Source: Naegleria gruberi (taxonomy: Eukaryota). From it: DNA of 64,000 bases. Numbering within the stretch: the first letter of the stretch is position 1; the number at the start of each line of letters is the position of its first letter. Below the pieces are notes generated by a model. The model was given only the letters and a program-made list of their open reading frames with translations. It made no database searches and was not told where the DNA came from. Below, one piece after another: positions 4,901 through 46,582 of the stretch. The stretch lies in NCBI GenBank assembly GCA_000004985.1, contig GG738862.1; one strand, 5' to 3'. Both the position numbers and the translations under genes were made by a program.

Positions 4901-6138
4901 GGCATCTCTTGTACATTCGAATATTTATGAGGATAGTTTTAACAAGATTGACTTTGCAAATAAGCATACCTTTAACAGATTTATGGTGAACAGATGGTTG
5001 GGTGTTAGAATCCATCTCAGTAAGTATTTTCACATTAACATTATTGCTCATCTTCACAGTTTCTCAATCTGTTTTGTTTTTTACTGCTATCTTTGCTATC
5101 ATTGCCAAACATACTCAAGAAATTAGTAGCCCAGCTTTCCTTGTATTGACCATTTCAAACTCTCTTCAGTTGAGTGATTGTTTCCAATCACTAGTTCGTT
5201 CGTTTGTTGAAGTTGAAAGTAACATGACTTGCGTGGAGAGAATTGTGTACTATGCTCAAAGTATCCCACAAGAAGCTGCCTACGATAAAGAAGGTGATCC
5301 AACCACAAGAGAATGGCCAACTAAGGGACACATTCAATTAGATCAATTGTCGGTAAGATACAGAGATGATTTGGATCCAGTTTTGAAGAATCTCGATTTG
5401 GATATCAAAGCAGGCACCAAAGTTGGTGTTGTAGGAAGGTATGTTTGAATATTTCTAACTTTCAAAATTAATATATAACATGAATATAGAACTGGAAGTG
5501 GAAAGAGTACTTTATTGATTTCTCTATTCAGATTCCTTGAAGCCAATGAAGGTAGCATCTCAATCGATGGTCTAGATATTTCCAATATTGGTTTGAGAAC
5601 TTTACGTAAAGCATTATTAATCATTCCTCAACAACCTGTTCTATTCTCTGGATCTATTCGATACAATTTGGATCCTTTCGATGAATTTGAGGATTATGAA
5701 ATATGGAATGCCCTCGAACGAGTTCATATGAAAGAAAAGATTCAACCACTCCAACTCTCCTTCACTGTTACTGAGAATGGAAGCAATTTTTCAATTGGTG
5801 AAAGACAATTACTCTCCCTTAGTAGATGTATTTTGAGGAAGGCAAATATTATCATCTTTGATGAATCCACTGCCTTTGTAGATCATAATAGTGATGAGTT
5901 GGTTCAGAAGGTTGTTAGGGAGGAATTTAAGGATAGTACAATCATAACCGTTGCTCACAGATTGGACACCATCATTGATTCGGATTGTATTGTATTTATG
6001 AAGGAGGGTGAAATTATAGAAACTGGAAGTCCAAAGGAATTACTCTTAGATGAAAGATCGAATTTCTCCTCTCTTGTGAGGGAAACTGGTAAACAATACT
6101 CTGACCACTTGAAGAACAAAGCTTTCAAGCTTGCTTAA
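1940..6138 (+). CDS. ABC transporter, ABCC/MRP subfamily (TMD–NBD–TMD–NBD); at least 4 exons
   Basis: ORFs 1775–2707, 2757–5126, 5002–5448 and 5515–6138 join into one MRP-like protein. NBD1 has Walker A GNTGSGKST and signature LSGGQKHRISLARA. TMD2 contains the MRP-conserved segment (NRWLGVRIHL ... FTAIFAII ... SNMTCVERI), and NBD2 reads VGVVGR|TGSGKSTL ... SIGERQLLSLSRC ... IIFDESTA. Introns: 5020–5059 (40 nt, GTAAGT..AG) and 5439–5489 (51 nt, GTATGT..AG). Both restore frame and are anchored to ORF ends. A further small intron is needed near 2687–2729 to join the first two ORFs; its exact position is uncertain. The first ATG in frame is at 1940 (MPPLISSS...); the ORF-track start at 1775 is a non-ATG codon. 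Stop TAA at 6136–6138. Confidence 0.85.
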
Positions 6139-6812
6139 TAATTTTTTAAATAAACCACAATTCGAAAGATGCAATTTTCATGAAACCTCACAACAACTAA
6201 GGAATTAAGGTGAACAACAACGAGAGATAAGGGAACAATACAGCAAAATACCATCCATTGAACGGACAGAGCCACCATTCAGATGACTGTTTCCTGTTCA
6301 TTCTCTCGTTTCATCTGAGGAAGTGGCCTGTCTTTTAGTATCTTTTTTCATGACCAAACTGTGATTGAAGAGGACTGCTAGCTAATGAATTTTGGGTTCA
6401 TCATTTCGAAAAAGAATGTGCTTAGTGGAAAAACATGATAGTTGAACTTGGCTTTACAACGTAAACTTATTTATCCATTTGAGGATCTCTTAATTTCCAA
6501 ACAATTTTCCCAAAATTGCCTCATAAATTATCAACCTATCATCCCTCATCTTGAAATTATTGAAATATTTTAAGCCAATGATTGTTTTAAGTTGTTTACA
6601 TGTTAGAGTACTGTAACGTAAACTTGTAACAAGATTTTGTGCGCATTCCACTACATTCTTCAGAGGTCACTACCGATACTGCTTCTTGTTCACACCAGGG
6701 ATGATATCGAGGATTTTGTTGAGTTTTTCACAAACACAACAACAGAAAAAAACGAACAAATTGAGGATTTGAGGATCTTTGATAACAATTTTGAAGAGTA
6801 ATATATAGCAAG

Positions 6813-8349
6813 ATGAGTGATATTGCAAGCGATTTTGAAACTGTACCAGAACCATACAAGATTAAGGTAGTAGAACCAATTAAATTAATTGCAAGACAGG
6901 AGAGAGAAGTTGCCATTAAGGAAGCTGGCCTCAATCAATTCTTATTAAAATCTGATGATGTTTTCATTGACTTATTAACGGACAGGTAAGTGGTATTATC
7001 TTGTTTCAAACCTATATAAAATCGGAACTTATTCAACTTTATCAATTTGTTACAGTGGTACAGGTGCAATGAGTCAAAACCAGTGGGCTGGGATGATGCT
7101 TGGTGATGAATCATACACTGGAAGGTTTGTTTTCATTTTCTTCTTTTAACCAAATGATGTAATAATAACTATTAATACATAATATGTAATCAGCCGTAAT
7201 TATTATAATCTCCAAAAGAGTGTGGAAGATATCTTGGGATTTAAATACTATTGTCCAACCCATCAAGGAAGAGGTGCTGAAAATATCTTGTTTGGTATCA
7301 TCATTAAGAAGGGTCAATATATTCTCGGAAATTATCACTTTGATACTACAAAGGCACATATTGAATTGAATTCTGGTTTGGCTGTCAATTTAATTCATGA
7401 AAGAGCTTATAACACATCTGTTGAACATCCATTTAAGGGAAATATTGATCTTGAAAAGTTGGAACACTTTATTGTGGAAAAGACTCCAGAAAAGATTGCA
7501 TTCTTGTTAATGACCATCACTTGTAATAGTGTTGGTGGTCAACCTGTTTCAATGGAAAATCTTCGTGGTGCCTATCAAGTTGCAAAGAAGTATAATTTAC
7601 CAATCTTTATTGATGCTGCTCGTTTTGCAGAGAATGCTTACTTTATTAAGAAGAGAGAAGCAGGTTATGAAAATAAGACAATTACAGAAATTGTTTGAGA
7701 AATGTTCTCATACAGTGATGGTTGTACAATGAGTGCCAAGAAGGATGGTCTTGTCAATATTGGTGGTATGATTGGTATTAAGGAGGATGAAGAATTATTC
7801 AAAAAGGTTAAACAAAGATGTGTTCCAATGGAAGGTTTCCCAACTTATGGTGGTTTGGCTGGCAGAGATATGGAAGCTTTGGCAATTGGTATGAGAGAAG
7901 TTGTAGATGAAGCTTATTTGGCTTCTCGTATCGATCAAGTTGAATATTTGGGAAGAAAGTTGAAAGAAGCTGGCATTCCTATTCAACAACCGTTGGGAGG
8001 TCATGCAGTTTTCATCAATGCTAAAGAATTCTTGCCTCACATTCCTCAAACTCAATATCCAGCTCAAGCTCTCTGTGTGGAATTGTATCTTGAGGGTGGT
8101 GTTAGAGCTGTTGAAGTGGGAACTTTATTGGCAGGTAGAGATCCAGAAACTGGTTTGGAAATTTTACCTGAACTCGATCTTTTACGTTTGACAATACCAA
8201 GAAGAGTTTATACAAATAATCACATGGATTGGGTTGCCACTTGCTTGAAGAGAATTGCTGCCAGAAAGGACAGGATTAGAGGGTTGAAGATTGTTGAAGA
8301 ACCACCAATTTTACGTCACTTTATGGCAAGATTTGATTGGGCAGAATAA
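6813..8349 (+). CDS. tnaA: tryptophanase (tryptophan indole-lyase, beta-eliminating lyase family); 3 exons, interrupted by an in-frame TGA at 7696–7698
   Basis: The protein aligns along its whole length to bacterial TnaA. Matching blocks include [15 protein letters not shown]..., [125 protein letters not shown] and [18 protein letters not shown]. Exons are 6813–6985, 7056–7124 and 7194–8349, with introns 6986–7055 (GTAAGT..AG) and 7125–7193 (GTTTGT..AG). Exon 3 restores the conserved ...GS|RNYY... alignment. A TGA stop sits in frame exactly at the position of a conserved Arg (E. coli ...ITRETYKY..., here ...ITEIV*EMFSYS...). The gene is either a pseudogene, a sequencing error (CGA to TGA) or a read-through case. 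Exon 1 start is accurate to ±1 nt. Confidence 0.8.
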
Positions 8350-8722
8350 ATTATTTTTATTTTGTAAAGTTAATATAATATTTAAGATTAACAGACGAAC
8401 ATTCGACAATGTAGCTACCATTGAATCCATTCAAACAAACAAAAAAATGAGCGTGAATATATAAAATGGTCGACCAATTTTCTATTGAATTGTATGATTG
8501 GAATAGATTCTCCAAGAATGTAAGTACACGATTAGTTTCGAATAATTAAATGTGAAATGAAATGCAGGTATTGCTCGATAGAACTGCTTTGATTTTTAAA
8601 CCTTATGATGTCACTCCAAAAGAAAACACTTGGATTGGGATGAAAGTGGAAAAGTGGAAGATCTGATTCCACAACTGAATAAACCCAGATCAAACCAAAA
8701 CCATAACTTCTCTCAAAACTTC

Positions 8723-8795
8723 TGCTGACGGACGGGATCGAACCGGCGACCAATGGCTTATTAGACCAACGCTCTACCGACTGAGCTACGCCAGC
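8723..8795 (-). tRNA. tRNA-Ile: tRNA-Ile (anticodon AAU)
   Basis: The reverse complement GCTGGCGTAGCTCAGTCGGTAGAGCGTTGGTCTAATAAGCCATTGGTCGCCGGTTCGATCCCGTCCGTCAGCA folds as a cloverleaf. The acceptor stem is GCTGGCG/CGTCAGC with one G·U pair. A and B boxes are present (TAGCTCAGTCGG, GGTTCGATCC). The anticodon loop CTAATAA gives anticodon AAT. It is similar to eukaryotic tRNA-Ile(AAU). One mismatch in the T-stem. Confidence 0.8.
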
Positions 8796-8990: not shown

Positions 8991-9215
8991 AGAAGACCCT
9001 TAATGAACTTAGCAAATACCTTACCATGGTGGACAAGCTAAAAGTACTATTTTTGAACATTTTGGTAAATTGTGGTTGGTTCTCTTCTAACATGAATACA
9101 GAAGATGTCACATCTCTTTAGAACATCATAAAACTTGACAAGAAAAAATAAGCAAACAAAGCAGATCTGCAAGATTTTGAAAATTAATTTCGGCGGAACT
9201 ATTCATCAAAAAAAC

Positions 9216-10553
9216 ATGGAGAAAAAACTCGAGTCTCTCCAACGAGAAGAAATATTTTCAGATGATATTTGTTTTGAAATAATTTCCATGATTGATGATT
9301 CGTGGTTTATTTTGAATAATTGTTCCTTGATTTCAAAACAATTCTTTAATGTGATCAAGGAACGTTCAAAACTTTTTATTGAATTTAAAAAAAAATTTAC
9401 AGAAAAAAGAATTGAACTATTCACAAAGAGTCAATTTATGAATAGTATTGTTAAAGTTAAATTTTCAACAAATTTGTTTGTCTCTATTGAAAATCACAAA
9501 TTCATAAGTGAAATGAAACAATTAACTTCACTTAATATTTCTAACAATCAAATTAATGATGAAACAGCCAAATCAATAATTGAAATGAAACGATTAACAT
9601 CACTTGATATTGGTGGAAATCAAATTGGTGATGAAGGAATCAAATTAATTAGTGAAATGAAACAATTAACATTACTTGATATTAGTGGAAATAGTATTGG
9701 TGATAAAGGAGTCAAACCAATTAGTAAAATGAAACAATTAACATCACTTAATATTTATAACAACGAAATTGGTGTAGCAGGATCCAAATTTATAATTGAA
9801 ATGAAACAATTAACATCACTTGATATAAGCTACAATGAAATTGGTGATGAAGGAGCCAAATCAATAAGTGAATTGAAACAATTAACATCACTTACTGTTA
9901 GTGGAAATCAAATTGGTGATGAAGGAATCAAATTAATTAGTGAAATGAAACAATTAACATTACTTGATATTAGTGGAAATAGTATTGGTGATAAAGGAGT
10001 CAAACCAATTAGTAAAATGAAACAATTAACATCACTTAATATTTATAACAACGAAATTGGTGTAGCAGGATCCAAATTTATAATTGAAATGAAACAATTA
10101 ACATCACTTGATATAAGCTACAATGAAATTGGTGATGAAGGAGCCAAATCAATAAGTGAAATGAAACAATTAACATCACTTACTATTAGTGGAAATCAAA
10201 TTGGTGATGAAGGAATCAAATTAATTAGTGAAATGAAACAATTAACATTACTTGATATTAGTGGAAAATCAGTTGGTGATAAAGGAGTCAAATCAATTAG
10301 TAAAATGAAACAATTAACATCACTTACTATTTATACCAATGAAATTGGTGTAGCAGGAGCCAAATTTATAAGTGAAATGAAACAATTAACATCACTTGAT
10401 ATAAGCTACAATGAAATTGGTGATGAAGGAGCAAAATCAATAAGTGAATTGAAACAATTAACATTACTTGATATTAGTGGAAATGGAATTGGTGATGAAG
10501 GATCCAAATTTATAATTGGAATGAAACAATTAAAATCACTTGATATTCAGTAG
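9216..10553 (+). CDS. F-box-like / leucine-rich-repeat (RNI-type) protein, 445 aa
   Basis: The N-terminus is F-box-like (EIFSDDICFEIISMIDD..LISKQFFNVIKERSKL). It is followed by ~14 consecutive 24-residue RNI-like LRRs (LTSLDISGNQIGDEGIKLISEMKQ...). First ATG at 9216 with an A-rich context; TAG stop. Confidence 0.8.
   Translation: MEKKLESLQREEIFSDDICFEIISMIDDSWFILNNCSLISKQFFNVIKERSKLFIEFKKKFTEKRIELFTKSQFMNSIVKVKFSTNLFVSIENHKFISEMKQLTSLNISNNQINDETAKSIIEMKRLTSLDIGGNQIGDEGIKLISEMKQLTLLDISGNSIGDKGVKPISKMKQLTSLNIYNNEIGVAGSKFIIEMKQLTSLDISYNEIGDEGAKSISELKQLTSLTVSGNQIGDEGIKLISEMKQLTLLDISGNSIGDKGVKPISKMKQLTSLNIYNNEIGVAGSKFIIEMKQLTSLDISYNEIGDEGAKSISEMKQLTSLTISGNQIGDEGIKLISEMKQLTLLDISGKSVGDKGVKSISKMKQLTSLTIYTNEIGVAGAKFISEMKQLTSLDISYNEIGDEGAKSISELKQLTLLDISGNGIGDEGSKFIIGMKQLKSLDIQ
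9598..10480. repeat. intragenic tandem repeat, 288-bp unit (4 LRRs) x3; first two units near-identical
   Basis: The DNA block tcacttgatattggtggaaatcaaattggtgatgaaggaatcaaattaattagtgaaatgaaacaattaacattacttgatattagtggaaatagtattggtgataaagga... recurs almost base-for-base 288 bp downstream. A third, diverged copy follows. Confidence 0.7.
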
Positions 10554-10927
10554 TATTATACAGTCAATCCTTTGTTAAGCACTAACATATGGTTCCTTTA
10601 AATTACGATTAGTTAACCTAATATAAATGTAGCAAGTATTTTAACAGTCCAACCTGCATTACAATGGACAGTGTTATTGTAAAAGGAGTGGGATTGAAAC
10701 AAGCAAGGAATTTCATAGATTGGGAGTAACTGGCTGTCAGGAATCAACAGGCAACAGAATTAATCGAAAAGGAAAATGGAATGATAGATTAATGACTTAA
10801 AAATCGATTTGACACTCTATCATCAATCGAGCTATTGTTCCATCTTCCTGGTTGTTACTAACTTCCACCATAAAAATTGCAATCAACTTGCTGCATTGAG
10901 TTCCACTTAAAAAAAATAGGCAGAACA

Positions 10928-12148
10928 ATGTTCCCATTTCACAAACGGAAAACCCAACTGTTGGACGAAACTTCATTGGAAACAGTGGATATTTTGTCTC
11001 TTGTTTTTCAATTTCTCGAGCTGAAAGAATTATTCGCTCTCCAAAAAGTATCACCCTTCTTCTACCGAACCATTGAACATTTGAAATCCTTACTGATCCG
11101 ACCAATATATGAAGTTGGTTTAGTTTCGTCCGATAAGAAACAATTATCGGAATTTCTTCAACTTACTTTAAAATCAGAATTAATTAGTTCAGCCACAAAG
11201 GAAAACCCACAAAAAGTTTCAAGTACTAGATACACTTATTATTCTACAACCGAAATCGACATGACAGATAAAAATGATGGCAATCAGCTCAAAAGTGTGA
11301 AATTTGGAGAGCATCATATGATTCATGCTTTTAACAAGGTTGAAAAGGAGTTTGTCTTTAAGAATGATAGATTTAGAGTATTCTTTTATCCATTGTATTG
11401 TGAAAAGAGTACGAGTTTATCACATGATGATTATCAACGACTGGATGGGTTCATATTTTTGAATCCAAACAGCAAAGATGGATATTCAACAATGCCGAAT
11501 GGATGTAGTTTTTGTGCAACACTCTTGGATTATAATAATTCTTCAGTTGCCAATGAAACAGTACTAATGCCAGTAAGAAATTTCGGATCTTTTAAAGTTG
11601 AGAAAGTGAGTGAAAGATATTCGATAGAACAATCAATTCTCGACTGTATTAATTACATTTCAGAGAACTCAAATCGATCAATTCAATTGAACTCAATAGG
11701 AGATGGCTTAAAATCATGTTTATTAGAAAAAATTTCATTAATCATTAAGGAACCCAATGATGAAATGGTTGCCACTAAAATATCAGATCTATTCAAGAAC
11801 AAATACACACTCAAAGAGCTGATACTCTCAGAGAAAGTGAGATACATGACCAGAAAATTGAATTTCTTCAATTATCCACACAATGTCCAATTCAGTCTTT
11901 TGAAAAGACTTTACACAGCTCATTTGGGAAATGAAAATGTTAAATTCAAAGATGATCTCTATGCCATTCAGGTTATTTTCAATCAGCAATTCAATTCTAG
12001 AAAAAGGGATTCATACGATGACCATTTGGTGGAAATGAAAACTACGCTCTCATTCAATTTAGTATCTCAGGAAATTAAGTTCGAATACAAGAATATTACA
12101 AGAGCAAGTACTATTGGCATTAGTAATAAAAAGTGCATCATTTGTTAG
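10928..12148 (+). CDS. F-box-like hypothetical protein, 406 aa, C-terminal ...KKCIIC
   Basis: The N-terminus has an F-box-like helix pattern (TVDILSLVFQFLELKELFALQKVSPFFYRTIEHL). Long non-repetitive ORF; first ATG at 10928; TAG stop. Confidence 0.6.
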   Translation: MFPFHKRKTQLLDETSLETVDILSLVFQFLELKELFALQKVSPFFYRTIEHLKSLLIRPIYEVGLVSSDKKQLSEFLQLTLKSELISSATKENPQKVSSTRYTYYSTTEIDMTDKNDGNQLKSVKFGEHHMIHAFNKVEKEFVFKNDRFRVFFYPLYCEKSTSLSHDDYQRLDGFIFLNPNSKDGYSTMPNGCSFCATLLDYNNSSVANETVLMPVRNFGSFKVEKVSERYSIEQSILDCINYISENSNRSIQLNSIGDGLKSCLLEKISLIIKEPNDEMVATKISDLFKNKYTLKELILSEKVRYMTRKLNFFNYPHNVQFSLLKRLYTAHLGNENVKFKDDLYAIQVIFNQQFNSRKRDSYDDHLVEMKTTLSFNLVSQEIKFEYKNITRASTIGISNKKCIIC

Positions 12149-13446: not shown

Positions 13447-13492
13447 CTTTAGTTTTCCATTTCCTAAAGGTCAGAACTCTTCAAAATAAAAA

Positions 13493-14533
13493 ATGAGCCA
13501 ACAAGAAAAGGAGGAAACAGTGGCACCAACCAAAGAAGAATCACCACAGCCAGTTTTTCCCGATGATGTGATATTTGAAATTATTTCCTTCAATAATGAT
13601 TTTAAATTTACAGTAAGGAGTTGTGCGTTGGTTTCTTCACAGTGGTTTAATGTCATTTTGGAAAGATCAAAACTTTCACTCACACACAACAGTAAAAAGA
13701 AAATTAATGGCCAATTTTTACAGCGTATTGTAGCTGTCAATGGGATGAAAAAATGTGATTGTATTCCATTTCTTGATCAAGTATTTGATCTCAAGAACTT
13801 GACTACCCTTGACGTTAATTGTATGAAAATTAAAGATGAAGGAGTAAAGATAATAAGTGAAATGAAACAGTTGACCAATCTTAATGTAGGCAGCAGTGGT
13901 ATTAGTGTTGAGGGAGTCAAATATATCAGCGGCATGAATCAATTAACTAATCTCAATATAAGCCGCAATAATATACGAGCAGAAGGAGCCCGTTACGTTA
14001 GTGAAATGAAACTATTAACCAATCTTAATATTTATTTAAACGGTATTAGAGCAGAAGGTACCAAATACATCAGTGAAATGAAAGAATTGACTTGTCTTAA
14101 TATAATGAGTAATGCAATTCACGATAAAGGCGCAGAACACCTTCGTCAAATGCCTAAATTGAATACACTCAATATTAATTCAAATAGTATCAGTGTAGAA
14201 GGAGCCAAATTTATTAGTGAAATACAGTCATTAACTAATCTTGATATTGGTTTCAATACTATTGGAGATGACGGTGTCAAATTTATAAGCAAAATGGAAA
14301 AACTAACAAAACTTTATACAATGTACATTAATATTGGAGAAAAAGGAGCCAAACACATTAGTGAAATGGAACAATTAACTAGTCTCAATATTAATTCGAA
14401 TAATGTAGGAACAGAAGGAGCAAAGTACTTATGTGAAATGAAACATTTAACATATATGAATATTTGCAACAACAATGTAGACAAACAATCCCAATTTATC
14501 AAAGATGCTACAGTCTGTTTCATCCAATGCTGA
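13493..14533 (+). CDS. F-box-like / leucine-rich-repeat (RNI-type) protein, 346 aa
   Basis: The N-terminus (DDVIFEIISFNNDFKFTVRSCALVSSQWFNVILERSKL) parallels the 9216 gene. About 10 RNI-like LRRs follow (LTNLNISRNNIRAEGARYVSEMKL...). ATG at 13493; TGA stop. Confidence 0.75.
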   Translation: MSQQEKEETVAPTKEESPQPVFPDDVIFEIISFNNDFKFTVRSCALVSSQWFNVILERSKLSLTHNSKKKINGQFLQRIVAVNGMKKCDCIPFLDQVFDLKNLTTLDVNCMKIKDEGVKIISEMKQLTNLNVGSSGISVEGVKYISGMNQLTNLNISRNNIRAEGARYVSEMKLLTNLNIYLNGIRAEGTKYISEMKELTCLNIMSNAIHDKGAEHLRQMPKLNTLNINSNSISVEGAKFISEIQSLTNLDIGFNTIGDDGVKFISKMEKLTKLYTMYINIGEKGAKHISEMEQLTSLNINSNNVGTEGAKYLCEMKHLTYMNICNNNVDKQSQFIKDATVCFIQC

Positions 14534-15100: not shown

Positions 15101-16093
15101 ATGAAATCCTTCTTCCATTCACTTTCGTTTGTATTACTGTTACTTTCGTCCTTGATGATATCCATCGCAAATGGACAACAATCCAATTCCACCACCCCAA
15201 CCTACACCATTTCGAGGGATTTCGTCAATGCCATCGATAATGCCATGAGTAAATTAATAGTTGACCCTGATTTTCAGAAAGGAATGAATGATCTTGGAAT
15301 GATCTTTTCAAGTCCTTCATGTTCTGCACTTCCATACACGAGATTGGCAATTCCTGATGCTCCTACAAGTCTCACTCTACCAAGAACAAGTCCACTTGTG
15401 ATGTGTTATGAAAATGATGCTTTATTTCAGTTTCCAGCTGTTCATGAGTTGGCAGGAAGAATTCTTATCAAGATTTTGAATAGCAAATATAATAAGGATA
15501 TTCCATATACGTTCATGAAGGTGAATACTACTGTTTTGGGATATTTCAATACTTTGAAATCTTTGGTGGATAATGGATCTTGTGATGTTGCCATAGCTTC
15601 TACAAATTTGGACACAGATCGTTTATCCAAGGTCCATTTCAATTGTCCGTATGGTTCTTCATCTCCTGGATTTTTGAGATCTGCATTGGATAATGGCACT
15701 GTCATTATTAATTCTGAATCTGATATTGATTCTGCTAATGTTACAGTATTGACCTATAAGGGAAGTTCTTATGATACCTATGCCAAATCAACCTATAAGA
15801 ATGCAATCGTTAAAAGTGTTTCGTCTGGATATACTGAATGTTTCGACATGATTATGAAGAAAGAAGCTCACGTATTGTTAGGTGATGCAACTGACATGGC
15901 TACTTGGTTGTCCAGAAACAGAAATGCATGTGGTGCTTCTTGTTTTACAAAAGTTTATGGAAATCCATTCTCATTTGGTTCTTTCCTTTCTAATAATATT
16001 AGAGAATCGAATGCAAATTTAGTTTCAAATGGAATTTTGAATAATGTCATGATAATTATTGGAATGTTACTCTTGATTTTCACTACCCTGTAA
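15101..16093 (+). CDS. secreted protein with a bacterial solute-binding-protein family 3-like domain and hydrophobic C-terminus (GPI-anchor or TM-like), 330 aa
   Basis: N-terminal signal peptide (MKSFFHSLSFVLLLLSSLMISIANG). The central region resembles an SBP_bac_3/iGluR ligand-binding lobe (SCDVAIASTNLDTDRLSKVHFNCPYGSSSPGFL). The C-terminus is a hydrophobic stretch NVMIIIGMLLLIFTTL. Confidence 0.6.
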   Translation: MKSFFHSLSFVLLLLSSLMISIANGQQSNSTTPTYTISRDFVNAIDNAMSKLIVDPDFQKGMNDLGMIFSSPSCSALPYTRLAIPDAPTSLTLPRTSPLVMCYENDALFQFPAVHELAGRILIKILNSKYNKDIPYTFMKVNTTVLGYFNTLKSLVDNGSCDVAIASTNLDTDRLSKVHFNCPYGSSSPGFLRSALDNGTVIINSESDIDSANVTVLTYKGSSYDTYAKSTYKNAIVKSVSSGYTECFDMIMKKEAHVLLGDATDMATWLSRNRNACGASCFTKVYGNPFSFGSFLSNNIRESNANLVSNGILNNVMIIIGMLLLIFTTL

Positions 16094-19698: not shown

Positions 19699-20999
19699 AT
19701 GATCAACAGTAGTTGTTGGTTGGTAGCTGTTTTGTTGATGTTGTGCCTCGTCTCAACTGCAACATGTGCTATTGCCTTGGCTGGTAATAAGAGAGCTGCT
19801 CCATCAACTGCTATGTGTACTCGTTACACTTCTGCATCATTGGTTGGAGATGTTGATTTGAGTAAGGTCACTCCAAAGCCTGTTAACTGTCCTTTGGGAT
19901 GTAATTTGTATACTGTTTCTGGCTCTGCATTGGGTTATAATGGTCCACTTGGGGCTTTGGGGTATGTTGTGTAGCTTTTATGATTTGTTTTACTATTTAT
20001 CAAACATTTTCATTATCATGATCAATCAGTCCTTTGGGTCCTTTGGGTCCTGTTTCCACTGGTACCCCTTACAATGTTCCTGATAATTTTGTTTGGTATG
20101 GAAATAACTTTAATACTTACCTTAAGGAAATGAATGCATGTGATAAGTTATTGAGCCATCCACAAAATCCACTCTCTTCTGCTGGCCCAATGGGTGATGC
20201 TTTCTTTGATGTCATGCCAAAGATTAACGATTTCACTAAACACATGATGGGTAAGTTGTTAAATAGTATTTGAATGCTAATAGGAATATTTCAATACGAA
20301 ATGTTGATGAAACCATTATTATATATTTACAAATTTTACACATTAAAAGGTATGGGAGTTTGGACTGTTTTGGGACCATTGGGACCTTTGGGCCCACTTG
20401 GTGCTTTGGGACCATTGGGTCCAGTTGGTTGCCACATGTTGGACGTTGATAAGGATGGTCAATTCGTCAGTAAGAAGGGTGAAGTTTTGAGAACTACCTC
20501 AGTTGTTTATAACTCGTCCCTCACTGTTAACTGGCCTCTTTTCGAAAGATATAAGAGTAGAGAATTCGTTGACAAATTGTCCAAGAAGGGTTTGCTCGAC
20601 ACTTCTTTCATGGTTTCTGCTAGTGTTGATATTACTGGTCATGCCTATGACATGGTTGTTACTGAACCTCAATACGTCACTGTCACTGTTATCCCAACTC
20701 TCTGGGCTAAGAACTTCTTCTTGGAAGCTTTCATTAACGGTAAATCTGTTATGAAGTCTGAAAAGCTCTTATTCACTCCTTGGTTCCAAGTCCACATTTC
20801 TGGAGCTGATTTGCAAAATGCTGGTCCAGGTGGAGCTAAATTGAAGGTTGTCATTAAGACTGATCCTCTCGATTGTGGAATGATGTCTGTCTTTGGATGT
20901 ACTATGGATTACACAATGCATGTTGTTGGTTCAACTTCATTCATGATGAGAAAGCCACACCTCAGTTACACTGGTCCACATATTAAGCAATGTGAATAA
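19699..20999 (+). CDS. secreted protein with two short collagen-like (GPL/GAL/GPV) Gly-X-Y runs; 3 exons
   Basis: Signal peptide MINSSCWLVAVLLMLCLVSTATCAIALA. Exons are 19699–19961, 20030–20250 and 20350–20999. Introns are 19962–20029 (GTATGT..CAG) and 20251–20349 (GTAAGT..AAG). Both sit at or next to the GPLG-coding repeats and restore frame (anchored to ORF ends). The spliced protein reads ...YNGPLGALGGPLGPLGPV... and ...KHMMGMGVWTVLGPLGPLGPLGALGPLGPVG.... It has a Cys-containing C-terminal domain of unknown function. Confidence 0.65.
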
Positions 21000-31976: not shown

Positions 31977-32002
31977 AAATTCAATTTCAACATTGATAAA
32001 AA

Positions 32003-42555: not shown

Positions 42556-44166
42556 ATGCAACAACTTCCCGATGAAATTCTTATGACAATTTTTACCTAT
42601 TTACCAGCCGAAGAAATTGTTGGGTGCATTAGTTTAGTTTCTAAATATTGGTATCAAAATTTGTGTTCAGAAATGGATTTAAAAGTAATCCAAGTAAAAT
42701 CACATCAAATTCCTAGCTTTGTAAAATGTCCCATGCTGAAAAAATTAATCAAGTTACATCTGATTGATGAAATTCATTTAGATCACTTTACATTGATTGG
42801 AAAATGTGAATTTCTTGAAAATCTACAGGTTTTAAAAGGAGACTATATGAATTTTGCAAGTCCTAAAGTGTTGTGTTCTTTAGTTTTCAGCAAATTTGCT
42901 ACAAAGTTGAAGAAAATCAAAAATGAATGGTCCTCTGTTTCATATTATAGCTTTGAATGGGCTGAGCAAATACTTCCAAACATAGCAGAAATTACAGGAA
43001 ATCCATTATGGTATCATGTTTTAGGAATGTGTTCTAACAAATTGAATGGATATTTTAAAGCAAGTGATCTTGGATACATACCTTCTCTGATACATCTTGG
43101 AGAGAAATTTGAAGATGTTGATGTAGAAGAAAGTTTTCATTACTATTTAAAAGCAGCAGAATTGGGTAGCCCTAAAGCTCAATATTTCGTTGGTCGGATG
43201 TATCAAATTGGTGAAGGTGTTAACCAGGATTTGAAGGAAGCATTCCAATGGTATTTAAAATCTGCCAATCAAGGACGTGTAGAATCAATATTTCAAGTTG
43301 CAACTAATTATAGAAAGGGAATTGGAATTGAAAAGTCTTTGTCAAAAGCTGAAGAGTGGTACCGAATTGGGGCTTTGAAAAATCATCCTGCTTGTCAATT
43401 TGGTTTAGGGCAAATTTTATTACTAAATGGATCGAGTACAAATTGTAAACAAGCAGTTTCATTCTTGATGAAATCAGCAGAGCAGGATTGCTTTGGTGCC
43501 ATGCATACTATTGGAAAATTATATGAATACGGGATTGGGCTTGATACGGATTTGGAAAAAGCATTCGAGCAATATTTGAAATGTGCAAAAGAAGGAAAAG
43601 ATTTAGAATCTGAATACCTAGTTGGAAAAATGTTAATTCAAGGAAAGGGAACGAAAAAACATTTCTACAGAGGTTTTAAATACCTTGAAAAAGCAGCAAA
43701 TAGATCCCATAGATTGAGTTGCATACTAGTAGGAATTATTTATCGCTTTGGATTAGGAGTTGATAAGGATGTTGAACAATCCAATGAATTATTACAATCA
43801 TTGGATTTAGATATTGATTTGTTAATTGATCCAACAAAGGTTGAGTCAGATTGTACTTGTAATTTGTGTTTCAATACTAAAATCATTAAGGGGTATTATC
43901 ATGGATGTGAGAATGAACAATGCAACTTTGAAATTTGTACAGATTGTTATGAATCAATCATTGACTTACAATGTCAATCATGTAAAGGAAATTCATTTAA
44001 AAAGAAGAATGCCATGTATGAGCTACTACCAACTCTGAATCAGTTATTGGAAAATTCAGAAGAAACCAAACCAAAGAAAAGAAAGAAGAAAAAAAATGAA
44101 AATCAAGATGGAAGGAAATTATTTACAGAATTCATGAATAAGCTTACAACAGCATTACAACAATGA
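42556..44166 (+). CDS. F-box protein with ~7 Sel1/TPR-like repeats and C-terminal Cys-rich zinc-finger-like region, 536 aa
   Basis: F-box LPDEILMTIFTYLPAEEIVGCISLVSKYWY. Sel1 repeats (AxxWYxKAAxQG...AQYxLGxMYxxGxGV). The C-terminus reads CTCNLCFNTKIIKGYYHGCENEQCNFEICTDCYESIIDLQCQSCKG. ATG after an A-run; TGA stop. Confidence 0.75.
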   Translation: MQQLPDEILMTIFTYLPAEEIVGCISLVSKYWYQNLCSEMDLKVIQVKSHQIPSFVKCPMLKKLIKLHLIDEIHLDHFTLIGKCEFLENLQVLKGDYMNFASPKVLCSLVFSKFATKLKKIKNEWSSVSYYSFEWAEQILPNIAEITGNPLWYHVLGMCSNKLNGYFKASDLGYIPSLIHLGEKFEDVDVEESFHYYLKAAELGSPKAQYFVGRMYQIGEGVNQDLKEAFQWYLKSANQGRVESIFQVATNYRKGIGIEKSLSKAEEWYRIGALKNHPACQFGLGQILLLNGSSTNCKQAVSFLMKSAEQDCFGAMHTIGKLYEYGIGLDTDLEKAFEQYLKCAKEGKDLESEYLVGKMLIQGKGTKKHFYRGFKYLEKAANRSHRLSCILVGIIYRFGLGVDKDVEQSNELLQSLDLDIDLLIDPTKVESDCTCNLCFNTKIIKGYYHGCENEQCNFEICTDCYESIIDLQCQSCKGNSFKKKNAMYELLPTLNQLLENSEETKPKKRKKKKNENQDGRKLFTEFMNKLTTALQQ

Positions 44167-46508: not shown

Positions 46509-46582
46509 GCCTTCCTAGCTCAGTTGGCAGTAGCGCTGTCCTAGTAAGACAGAGGTCTTGGGTTCGATTCCCAAGGGAGGCA
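46509..46582 (+). tRNA. tRNA-Thr: tRNA-Thr (anticodon AGU)
   Basis: GCCTTCCTAGCTCAGTTGGCAGTAGCGCTGTCCTAGTAAGACAGAGGTCTTGGGTTCGATTCCCAAGGGAGGCA. Acceptor is GCCTTCC/GGGAGGC. Anticodon stem-loop is CTGTC-CTAGTAA-GACAG with anticodon AGT. T-arm is TTGGG-TTCGATT-CCCAA. It resembles eukaryotic tRNA-Thr(AGU). Confidence 0.85.

Follow-up and report, generated by a model that had tools for sequence, protein, structure and literature searches.

Tryptophanase (tryptophan indole-lyase, TnaA) converts L-tryptophan and water into indole, pyruvate and NH4+. The characterised enzymes of Proteus vulgaris (PDB 1AX4) and Escherichia coli (2OQX/2C44) are fold-type I enzymes of the Beta_elim_lyase family that depend on pyridoxal 5'-phosphate (PLP) and carry its lysine in an SAKKD motif. 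The same family, fold and motif are found in the product of a gene of the amoeba Naegleria gruberi, here called tnaA, which lies at positions 6813-8349 (+) of a 64,000-nucleotide stretch of contig GG738862.1 (assembly GCA_000004985.1); the whole of this stretch is referred to below as the window. Our overall reading, which we consider very probable, is that tnaA was derived from a bacterium by lateral gene transfer (LGT), that its two introns are real, and that a TGA interrupting its frame is a lesion or an error and not a device.

Bacterial-type tryptophanases of lateral origin have been recorded in Trichomonas vaginalis (TVAG_054490), Tritrichomonas, Entamoeba histolytica and Blastocystis, and likewise in Mastigamoeba, Pygsuia and Monocercomonoides (PMC6759080, PMC8537960). 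Their published affinities are not uniform, the Trichomonas gene being Bacteroides-like and the Entamoeba gene Fusobacterium-like (PMC8537960). Unlike the anaerobic protists that bear tnaA, Naegleria is a free-living, largely aerobic heterolobosean. Boya et al. 2021 place N. gruberi among the tnaA-carrying protists, with indole production entered as 'n/a' (PMC8537960), and the species does not appear in the list of tryptophanase-bearing eukaryotes given by Karnkowska et al. 2019 (PMC6759080). A literature look-up of the gene identifiers gave no matches, and no reports of indole production by N. gruberi were found in the literature searched. The Naegleria gene is thus already catalogued though barely discussed, and the category to which it belongs, lateral genes that gain introns, is well known. 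What is added here is the donor clade, the placement of the introns at AG sites, and a premature stop that is masked by the public annotation.

Gene structure and enzyme family

The locus at 6813-8349 (+) encodes a tryptophanase-type beta-eliminating lyase of 465 codons. Its top database match is the N. gruberi gene NAEGRDRAFT_66340 (XP_002678275.1, EFC45531.1, D2VBU7), publicly named "predicted protein"; our translation is identical to this 453-residue entry apart from a 12-residue gap. The frame opens with the ATG at 6813, the first ATG past an in-frame TGA at 6792-6794, and closes with the TAA at 8347-8349. Exon 1 (6813..6985, +) holds codons 1-57 and two nucleotides of Ser58, exon 2 (7056..7124, +; 69 nt) holds the catalytic-type Tyr78, and exon 3 (7194..8349, +), which ends in the TAA, contains Asp131 (7342-7344), the PLP lysine K264 (7741-7743) and His456 (8317-8319). 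Both introns are in phase 2: intron 1 (6986..7055, +) measures 70 nt with a GC content of 27% and reads GTAAGT..TTACAG, and intron 2 (7125..7193, +) measures 69 nt with a GC content of 20% and reads GTTTGT..AATCAG.

Left unspliced, the frame collapses past codon 58 and runs straight into stops. Intron 1 causes a frame shift; intron 2, although a multiple of three in length, has in-frame stops of its own. Removal of both yields a 1398-nt frame, the product of which aligns end to end with TnaA of Anoxybacter fermentans and 25 other homologues with zero internal indels. An earlier note on this DNA had proposed precisely these two introns, and its boundaries proved exact; their removal restores a gap-free alignment with the bacterial homologues, and the junction peptides LLTDS/GTGAM and YTGS/RNYYNLQK (the slash marks the junction) are as it gave them and fit the homologues without an indel. 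Together, the introns and the bacterial-type family match are far beyond chance. At the N-terminus, the first 11 residues bear no relation to the bacterial sequence, and the length differs by 4 residues.

Each intron follows the AG of a serine AGY codon (GAC AG/T GGT for intron 1 and GGA AG/C CGT for intron 2). In the three closest bacterial genes that were readable, the serine at the first site is encoded by AGT and that at the second by AGC or AGT, so the introns sit at AG sites that already existed. A scan of the window for GT..AG segments that join open reading frames (ORFs) recovered both validated introns of the upstream ABCC-type transporter gene (see below), and its other candidates, 33-68 nt long, nearly all have GTAAGT or GTATGT donors and YAG acceptors. 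By this measure intron 1 (GTAAGT..ACAG) is canonical; intron 2 (GTTTGT..TCAG) keeps G1, T2, G5 and T6 and the YAG acceptor, and its donor departs from GTAAGT/GTATGT. The two introns resemble neither each other nor the rest of the 64-kb window, so that no introner-type repeat was detected there.

Splicing of both introns is therefore strongly predicted in silico, with some points to be set against it. Exact look-ups were made with the public protein, the 248-residue N-terminal product, the 215-residue C-terminal ORF, pieces of the unspliced ORF, and the full-length product carrying R, W, L or C at codon 249; they returned no independent N. gruberi sequence, only the public model. A homology search with the N-terminal 248 residues gave bacterial fragments only, at no more than 67% identity; since its targets apparently measured about 0.9-1.75 times the query length, this is a fair negative for that size only. 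Both the splicing of the two introns and the non-splicing of a 36-nt segment discussed below are thus predictions made in silico.

The spliced product belongs to the tryptophanase subfamily but is not a certified equivalog. It matches Pfam Beta_elim_lyase (PF01212) over residues 53-429 (E=7e-82; 275.5 bits vs a cut-off of 27) and the NCBIfam tryptophanase subfamily model NF009709 (PRK13238) with 729 bits (cut-off 285). K263/K264 of the SAKKD motif and the PLP-anchoring residues D221 and R224 are invariant with the 25 homologues and align to the PDB structures of tryptophanase and tyrosine phenol-lyase (TPL), and R107, Y78 and R412-R418 (the RLTIPRR motif) are also conserved. Compared with the Naegleria protein, the gamma-proteobacterial tryptophanases have 8 extra residues inserted after residue 118.

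Overall similarity does not separate the two activities of the family. TPL, represented by the structures from Erwinia herbicola (1C7G) and Citrobacter freundii (2EZ1), is equally similar to the Naegleria protein (555 bits), and the matches to TPL 1C7G (E=8.5e-166) and to Proteus tryptophanase 1AX4 (E=7.5e-164) are equally strong. The substrate pocket is more telling. At its first specificity position the Naegleria protein has Asp131, where TPL has Thr124 and the P. vulgaris enzyme Asp133; at the second it has His456, where TPL has Phe448 and P. vulgaris His458. We take Asp133 and His458 of P. vulgaris to be indole contacts, and both positions to separate tryptophanase from TPL activity. Because Asp131 and His456 break the tie between the TnaA and TPL scores, the product can be called tryptophanase-type, its predicted substrate being assigned from these two residues. 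A role as TPL (EC 4.1.99.2) was considered and rejected, given Asp and His at the Thr124 and Phe448 positions and a score for the TPL equivalog TIGR02618 that falls short of the cut-off.

Several points weigh against the tryptophanase call. The TnaA equivalog TIGR02617 scores 634 bits against a cut-off of 825.8, nearly tied with the 632 bits of TIGR02618 (cut-off 720.7), and the two specificity residues are the sole basis on which a substrate is proposed. The equivalog NF053783 is likewise below its cut-off (636 vs 750 bits). As assembled, moreover, the frame is not uninterrupted: the TGA at codon 249 blocks the full-length enzyme, so that, compared with the characterised tryptophanases, the Naegleria ORF is broken and its enzyme a predicted one.

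An intact enzyme would keep all catalytic and specificity residues and would be expected to act as a PLP-dependent tryptophan indole-lyase (EC 4.1.99.1), an activity that we infer from the residues just described. It would probably be cytosolic, because its N-terminus is extended by no more than 4 residues over the bacterial proteins, and would feed pyruvate into energy metabolism and release indole. Judging from the family, a bacterivorous amoeba could in this way gain pyruvate from the tryptophan of its prey and release indole, a known bacterial signal (PMC8537960).

Probable bacterial ancestry and donor clade

After the N. gruberi entry itself, the closest relative of the protein is TnaA of A. 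fermentans (Clostridia, Halanaerobiales; CP016379.1, annotated as tyrosine phenol-lyase/tryptophanase), with 81% identity by BLASTP and 80.5% in a global alignment. Twelve uncultured relatives of equal length (P0003-P0014) follow at 75-80%, and the remaining matches from Clostridia/Bacillota at 64-71%; the characterised tryptophanases of P. vulgaris and E. coli are more distant from the Naegleria protein than the Clostridia clade. The A. fermentans protein and the 12 relatives, 75-81% identical to the Naegleria product, are collinear with it over the whole length, share its catalytic and specificity residues, and their genes have AGY serine codons at both intron sites. Unlike the Naegleria gene, those of the Anoxybacter clade have no introns, no internal stop and a bacterial codon usage with CGN arginine codons.

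The earlier note had described the protein as bacterial in type and had proposed a phylogeny as a check. In a neighbour-joining tree of 41 taxa with 100 bootstraps, N. gruberi grouped with the 13 Anoxybacter-clade sequences in 100/100 replicates, and thus inside a Clostridia clade, branching at or near the base of the Anoxybacter group; that part of the proposal therefore stands. The tree carries less weight than it might, being built by neighbour-joining and not by maximum likelihood, and the tryptophanases of other protists are not among its taxa.

The order of genes Peptidase_M55-HSP33-tnaA-AcrB is conserved at the three loci examined, in A. fermentans and two relatives. Since tnaA is accordingly native in the bacteria, the shared synteny indicates a transfer from bacterium to amoeba. 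None of these neighbours occurs in the Naegleria window, where a tblastn search with Anoxybacter-type flanking genes found tnaA only and no co-transferred donor neighbours. Residual bacterial promoter and terminator signals in the flanks of tnaA were at or below the shuffled expectation.

Among the 120 best matches, most of which carry no source name, N. gruberi is the sole named eukaryotic source, and neither another annotated Naegleria orthologue nor a tryptophanase of the anaerobic protists appears by name. If change were roughly clock-like, an orthologue from another annotated Naegleria species should rank above the bacterial proteins. That other Naegleria species lack the gene is nevertheless read from the ranking of matches and not from a genome search, which tells against a firm statement on this point. 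In pattern-based scans of genome and metagenome contigs, no match exceeded 65-72% identity, and no environmental copy with introns came to light. The best explanation of these data is that Naegleria acquired tnaA independently of the other protists, because no other protist is named among the 120 best matches and because the affinities of the Trichomonas and Entamoeba genes differ.

Codon usage bears on the age of the transfer. With a leave-one-out codon model built from 26 ORFs of the window, tnaA scores -1.23 bits per codon, the best value in the window (actin, -1.255), compared with -1.72 for the Anoxybacter gene. AGA makes up 17 of 24 arginine codons in the Naegleria gene and 2 of 27 in that of Anoxybacter, and third-position identity between the two is 46%. 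The codon usage of tnaA is fully host-like and shaped like that of a well-expressed host gene, which settles a comparison with neighbouring genes that had been suggested in the earlier note. Host-like codons together with the low third-position identity indicate that the transfer was not recent at the DNA level.

A lateral transfer from bacterium to amoeba, followed by long residence, is thus well supported, both its direction and its timing being what we infer from these comparisons. The gene would have been acquired from a bacterium of the Anoxybacter (Halanaerobiales) lineage within the Clostridia; domestication would then have brought a new short N-terminus, a shift to host codons and, within the 5' third, the insertion of two short spliceosomal introns, each behind the AG of an AGY serine codon that was already there. 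Read in this way, tnaA offers a clean, textbook-style example of how a free-living eukaryote can domesticate a metabolic gene from bacteria, with a donor clade at ~80% identity. It may be useful for studies of intron gain because the intron-less ancestral state is known. The current understanding of LGT or of tryptophanase is unchanged by these findings.

The premature TGA at codon 249

One feature escaped the earlier note, and because of it the ORF as assembled is not intact: the spliced frame contains an in-frame TGA at 7696..7698 (+), codon 249, which lies 15 codons upstream of the PLP lysine. If translated as assembled, the mRNA would give an inactive fragment of 248 residues that lacks this lysine and the small domain. 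In 119 bacterial homologues the corresponding column is occupied by R (66), K (36), L (9), H (4), Q (2), V (1) and M (1), and in the closest bacterial genes the codon is TTG, TTA or CGG. A single transversion would turn TTA (Leu) or AGA, the arginine codon preferred by the host, into TGA, and such a change would be the simplest origin of the break in the frame.

There is no sign of decay beyond the stop. Of the columns with a conservation of 98% or more in bacteria, 72/73 are kept downstream of the TGA and 78/80 upstream, and the protein is 82% identical to that of A. fermentans beyond the stop and 79% before it; the change must therefore be very recent. A lesion or an error, with no recoding or splicing device, is the most likely nature of this TGA. 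Within that reading, we incline to a nonsense allele that is very recent and was carried by the strain sequenced, an explanation whose chances we put at slightly better than even.

A second explanation, possible but somewhat doubtful, is that sequencing or assembly introduced the TGA by mistake, the true codon being a sense codon (e.g., TTA, AGA or CGA) and the gene encoding an intact 465-residue tryptophanase. Such an error would account for a single lesion in a gene that keeps 150/153 highly conserved columns and has the best codon usage in the window, and one base change would restore the Leu or Arg of the closest bacteria. Yet the public model skips this codon and so evidently goes back to the same sequence, TGA included, and finished Sanger assemblies generally have low rates of substitution error. 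A recent loss is also plausible in itself, as LGT-derived accessory genes in long-term axenic laboratory lines, of which the sequenced strain is one, may well be targets of it.

The public model, XP_002678275.1, bypasses the TGA by treating 7664..7699 (+) as a third intron (GTTATG..TTTGAG). This 36-nt segment encodes 11 residues and the TGA, and is most likely coding: nine of the 11 residues are identical to those of A. fermentans, the segment is gap-free in 119/119 bacterial homologues, and G238, Y239, K242, E246 and I247 are 84-100% conserved. Its ends are non-consensus, both splice sites departing from those of the other introns of the window. In AlphaFold2 models, the predicted local distance difference test (pLDDT) score is 96-97 over residues 231-250 of the full-length protein. 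In the 453-residue protein, residues 225-235, which score 88-97 at full length, drop under 50; around the junction the score is about 55, and the mean falls from 83.9 to 78.7. Because the segment is conserved as coding sequence, no homologue has a gap there, its splice sites are off-pattern and AlphaFold2 loses confidence without it, the 36-nt intron is probably an artefact of gene prediction, an annotation device, and the public model would then be wrong.

Not all of this evidence is equally pointed. AlphaFold2 depends on its alignment, which makes the drop in pLDDT weak evidence; introns of 33-44 nt appear to be present in the host, so that length does not by itself exclude one of 36 nt; and a conserved segment is also what a very recent intronization would leave behind. 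That 7664-7699 is a genuine third intron, perhaps intronized recently after a nonsense mutation, and that a 453-residue tryptophanase is made, is in our view improbable all the same. The segment is in frame at 36 nt and bounded by GT..AG, host candidates in the window are as short as 33-44 nt, and the lack of decay downstream of the TGA would fit continued expression of a product. Its donor GTTATG, however, lacks the G5 and T6 of the validated and candidate host introns, its acceptor is TGAG and not YAG and is preceded by no pyrimidine tract, and the segment is conserved coding sequence written in host codons, with a gap in none of the 119 homologues. Its deletion also costs the model confidence in the preceding helix, and gene predictors are generally known to create introns of this kind around stops. 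Were the splicing real, it would be a newborn third intron made from the gene's own exon, rescuing a lateral gene from a nonsense mutation, and a datable example of intron birth.

Recoding of the TGA, as selenocysteine, as Trp or by programmed read-through, with a full-length enzyme as the outcome, is very improbable. An intact ORF downstream of the TGA is what recoding would predict, and Naegleria presumably encodes selenocysteine machinery and selenoproteins. Against this, no match to a selenocysteine insertion sequence (SECIS) was found in Rfam at E<=10, either in tnaA or in 8330-8730, and the interval between the TAA and a small gene that may follow it is only ~116 nt. The column at codon 249, which is non-catalytic, holds R, K or L in 111/119 homologues and Cys or Trp in none. 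TGA is moreover an ordinary terminator of many ORFs in the window, and TGA followed by G is no generally known leaky context. A loose ATGA..AA..GA pattern was no commoner than expected by chance and is uninformative. An alternative genetic code in which TGA is a sense codon was ruled out, as TGA ends many long ORFs of the window.

With the TGA read as a lesion or an error, the reference annotation XP_002678275.1, in which a premature stop is hidden behind a 36-nt intron, is worth correcting. Metabolic reconstructions that credit strain NEG-M with tryptophanase or indole production call for caution.

Genomic neighbourhood and other features of the window

The surroundings of tnaA are those of a eukaryotic chromosome. 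Upstream lies a gene for an ABCC-type transporter, which ends at 6138. Two of its introns, both very short, at 5020-5059 (+; 40 nt, GTAAGT..CACAG) and at 5439-5489 (+; 51 nt, GTATGT..ATATAG), were validated, as the spliced product aligns contiguously with human ABCC2. Downstream lies a tRNA-Ile(AAT) gene with a eukaryote-type anticodon (8723-8795, -). Further eukaryotic genes of the window encode actin, polyubiquitin, an EGF/NHL receptor kinase and LRR_6 proteins, and the GC content is flat at ~0.31-0.37 over most of the window (extremes 0.27-0.40).

The earlier note had held tnaA to be resident in the eukaryotic genome, and its host-style introns, eukaryotic flanks and host-like codons bear this out. 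Bacterial contamination, or a mis-assembled bacterial insert, is effectively refuted as the source of the gene: it could draw on the 80% identity to a bacterial protein and on the lack of an orthologue with any other eukaryotic name among the 120 best matches, but it is contradicted by two canonical host-style introns, by host-like codons very unlike those of the bacterial gene with their third-position identity of only 46%, by an intron-bearing ABCC gene and a tRNA-Ile(AAT) gene within a few hundred bases on a 502-kb contig, and by uniform GC content and missing bacterial neighbour genes. With contamination excluded, lateral transfer is the best account of the nesting within a bacterial clade, the host-like introns, the eukaryotic neighbours and the host codons taken together.

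The earlier note had also pointed to two other genes of the window, a flavodoxin-like and an SBP_bac_3-like one, as putatively bacterial in origin. The Flavodoxin_2 domain of a protein resembling NAD(P)H dehydrogenase (quinone), encoded at 55757-56299 (-), is real (Pfam E=1.5e-39), whereas the SBP_bac_3 match of a secreted-looking protein of 330 residues (15101-16090, +) is below threshold (E=0.01; 16 bits vs a cut-off of 26.4).

Between tnaA and the tRNA-Ile gene lies a possible two-exon gene for 50 residues at 8466-8519 and 8568-8666 (+), with MVDQFSIELYDWNRFSKN and VLLDRTALIFKPYDV on the two sides of its junction. Its putative 48-nt intron reads GTAAGT..TGCAG, and the product has no Pfam match. 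If this gene is real, only ~116 nt would be left for the 3' untranslated region of tnaA. The ABCC-type transporter gene shows an apparent frame change near 2680-2710. Two further tRNA genes, tRNA-Thr(AGT) (46509-46582, +) and tRNA-Gln(TTG) (59007-59079, +), are dispersed in the window along with tRNA-Ile(AAT); the A34 anticodons among them are typical of eukaryotes.

An ORF at 20274-20999 (+) has a collagen-like or low-complexity run (GPLGPLGPLGALGPLGPVG) and perhaps represents another gene read on the wrong strand or in the wrong frame. Finally, the ORFs at 9135-10553, 10874-12148, 13490-14533, 32000-33274 and 42541-44166 (all +) may be paralogues. The first of them has highly regular 24-residue LRR_6 (RNI-type) repeats, the domain scan having covered 9216-10550 only, and shares a common F-box-like N-terminal motif with three of the other four. 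Its third-position GC content is very low (0.15), and it contains near-identical internal repeat blocks.

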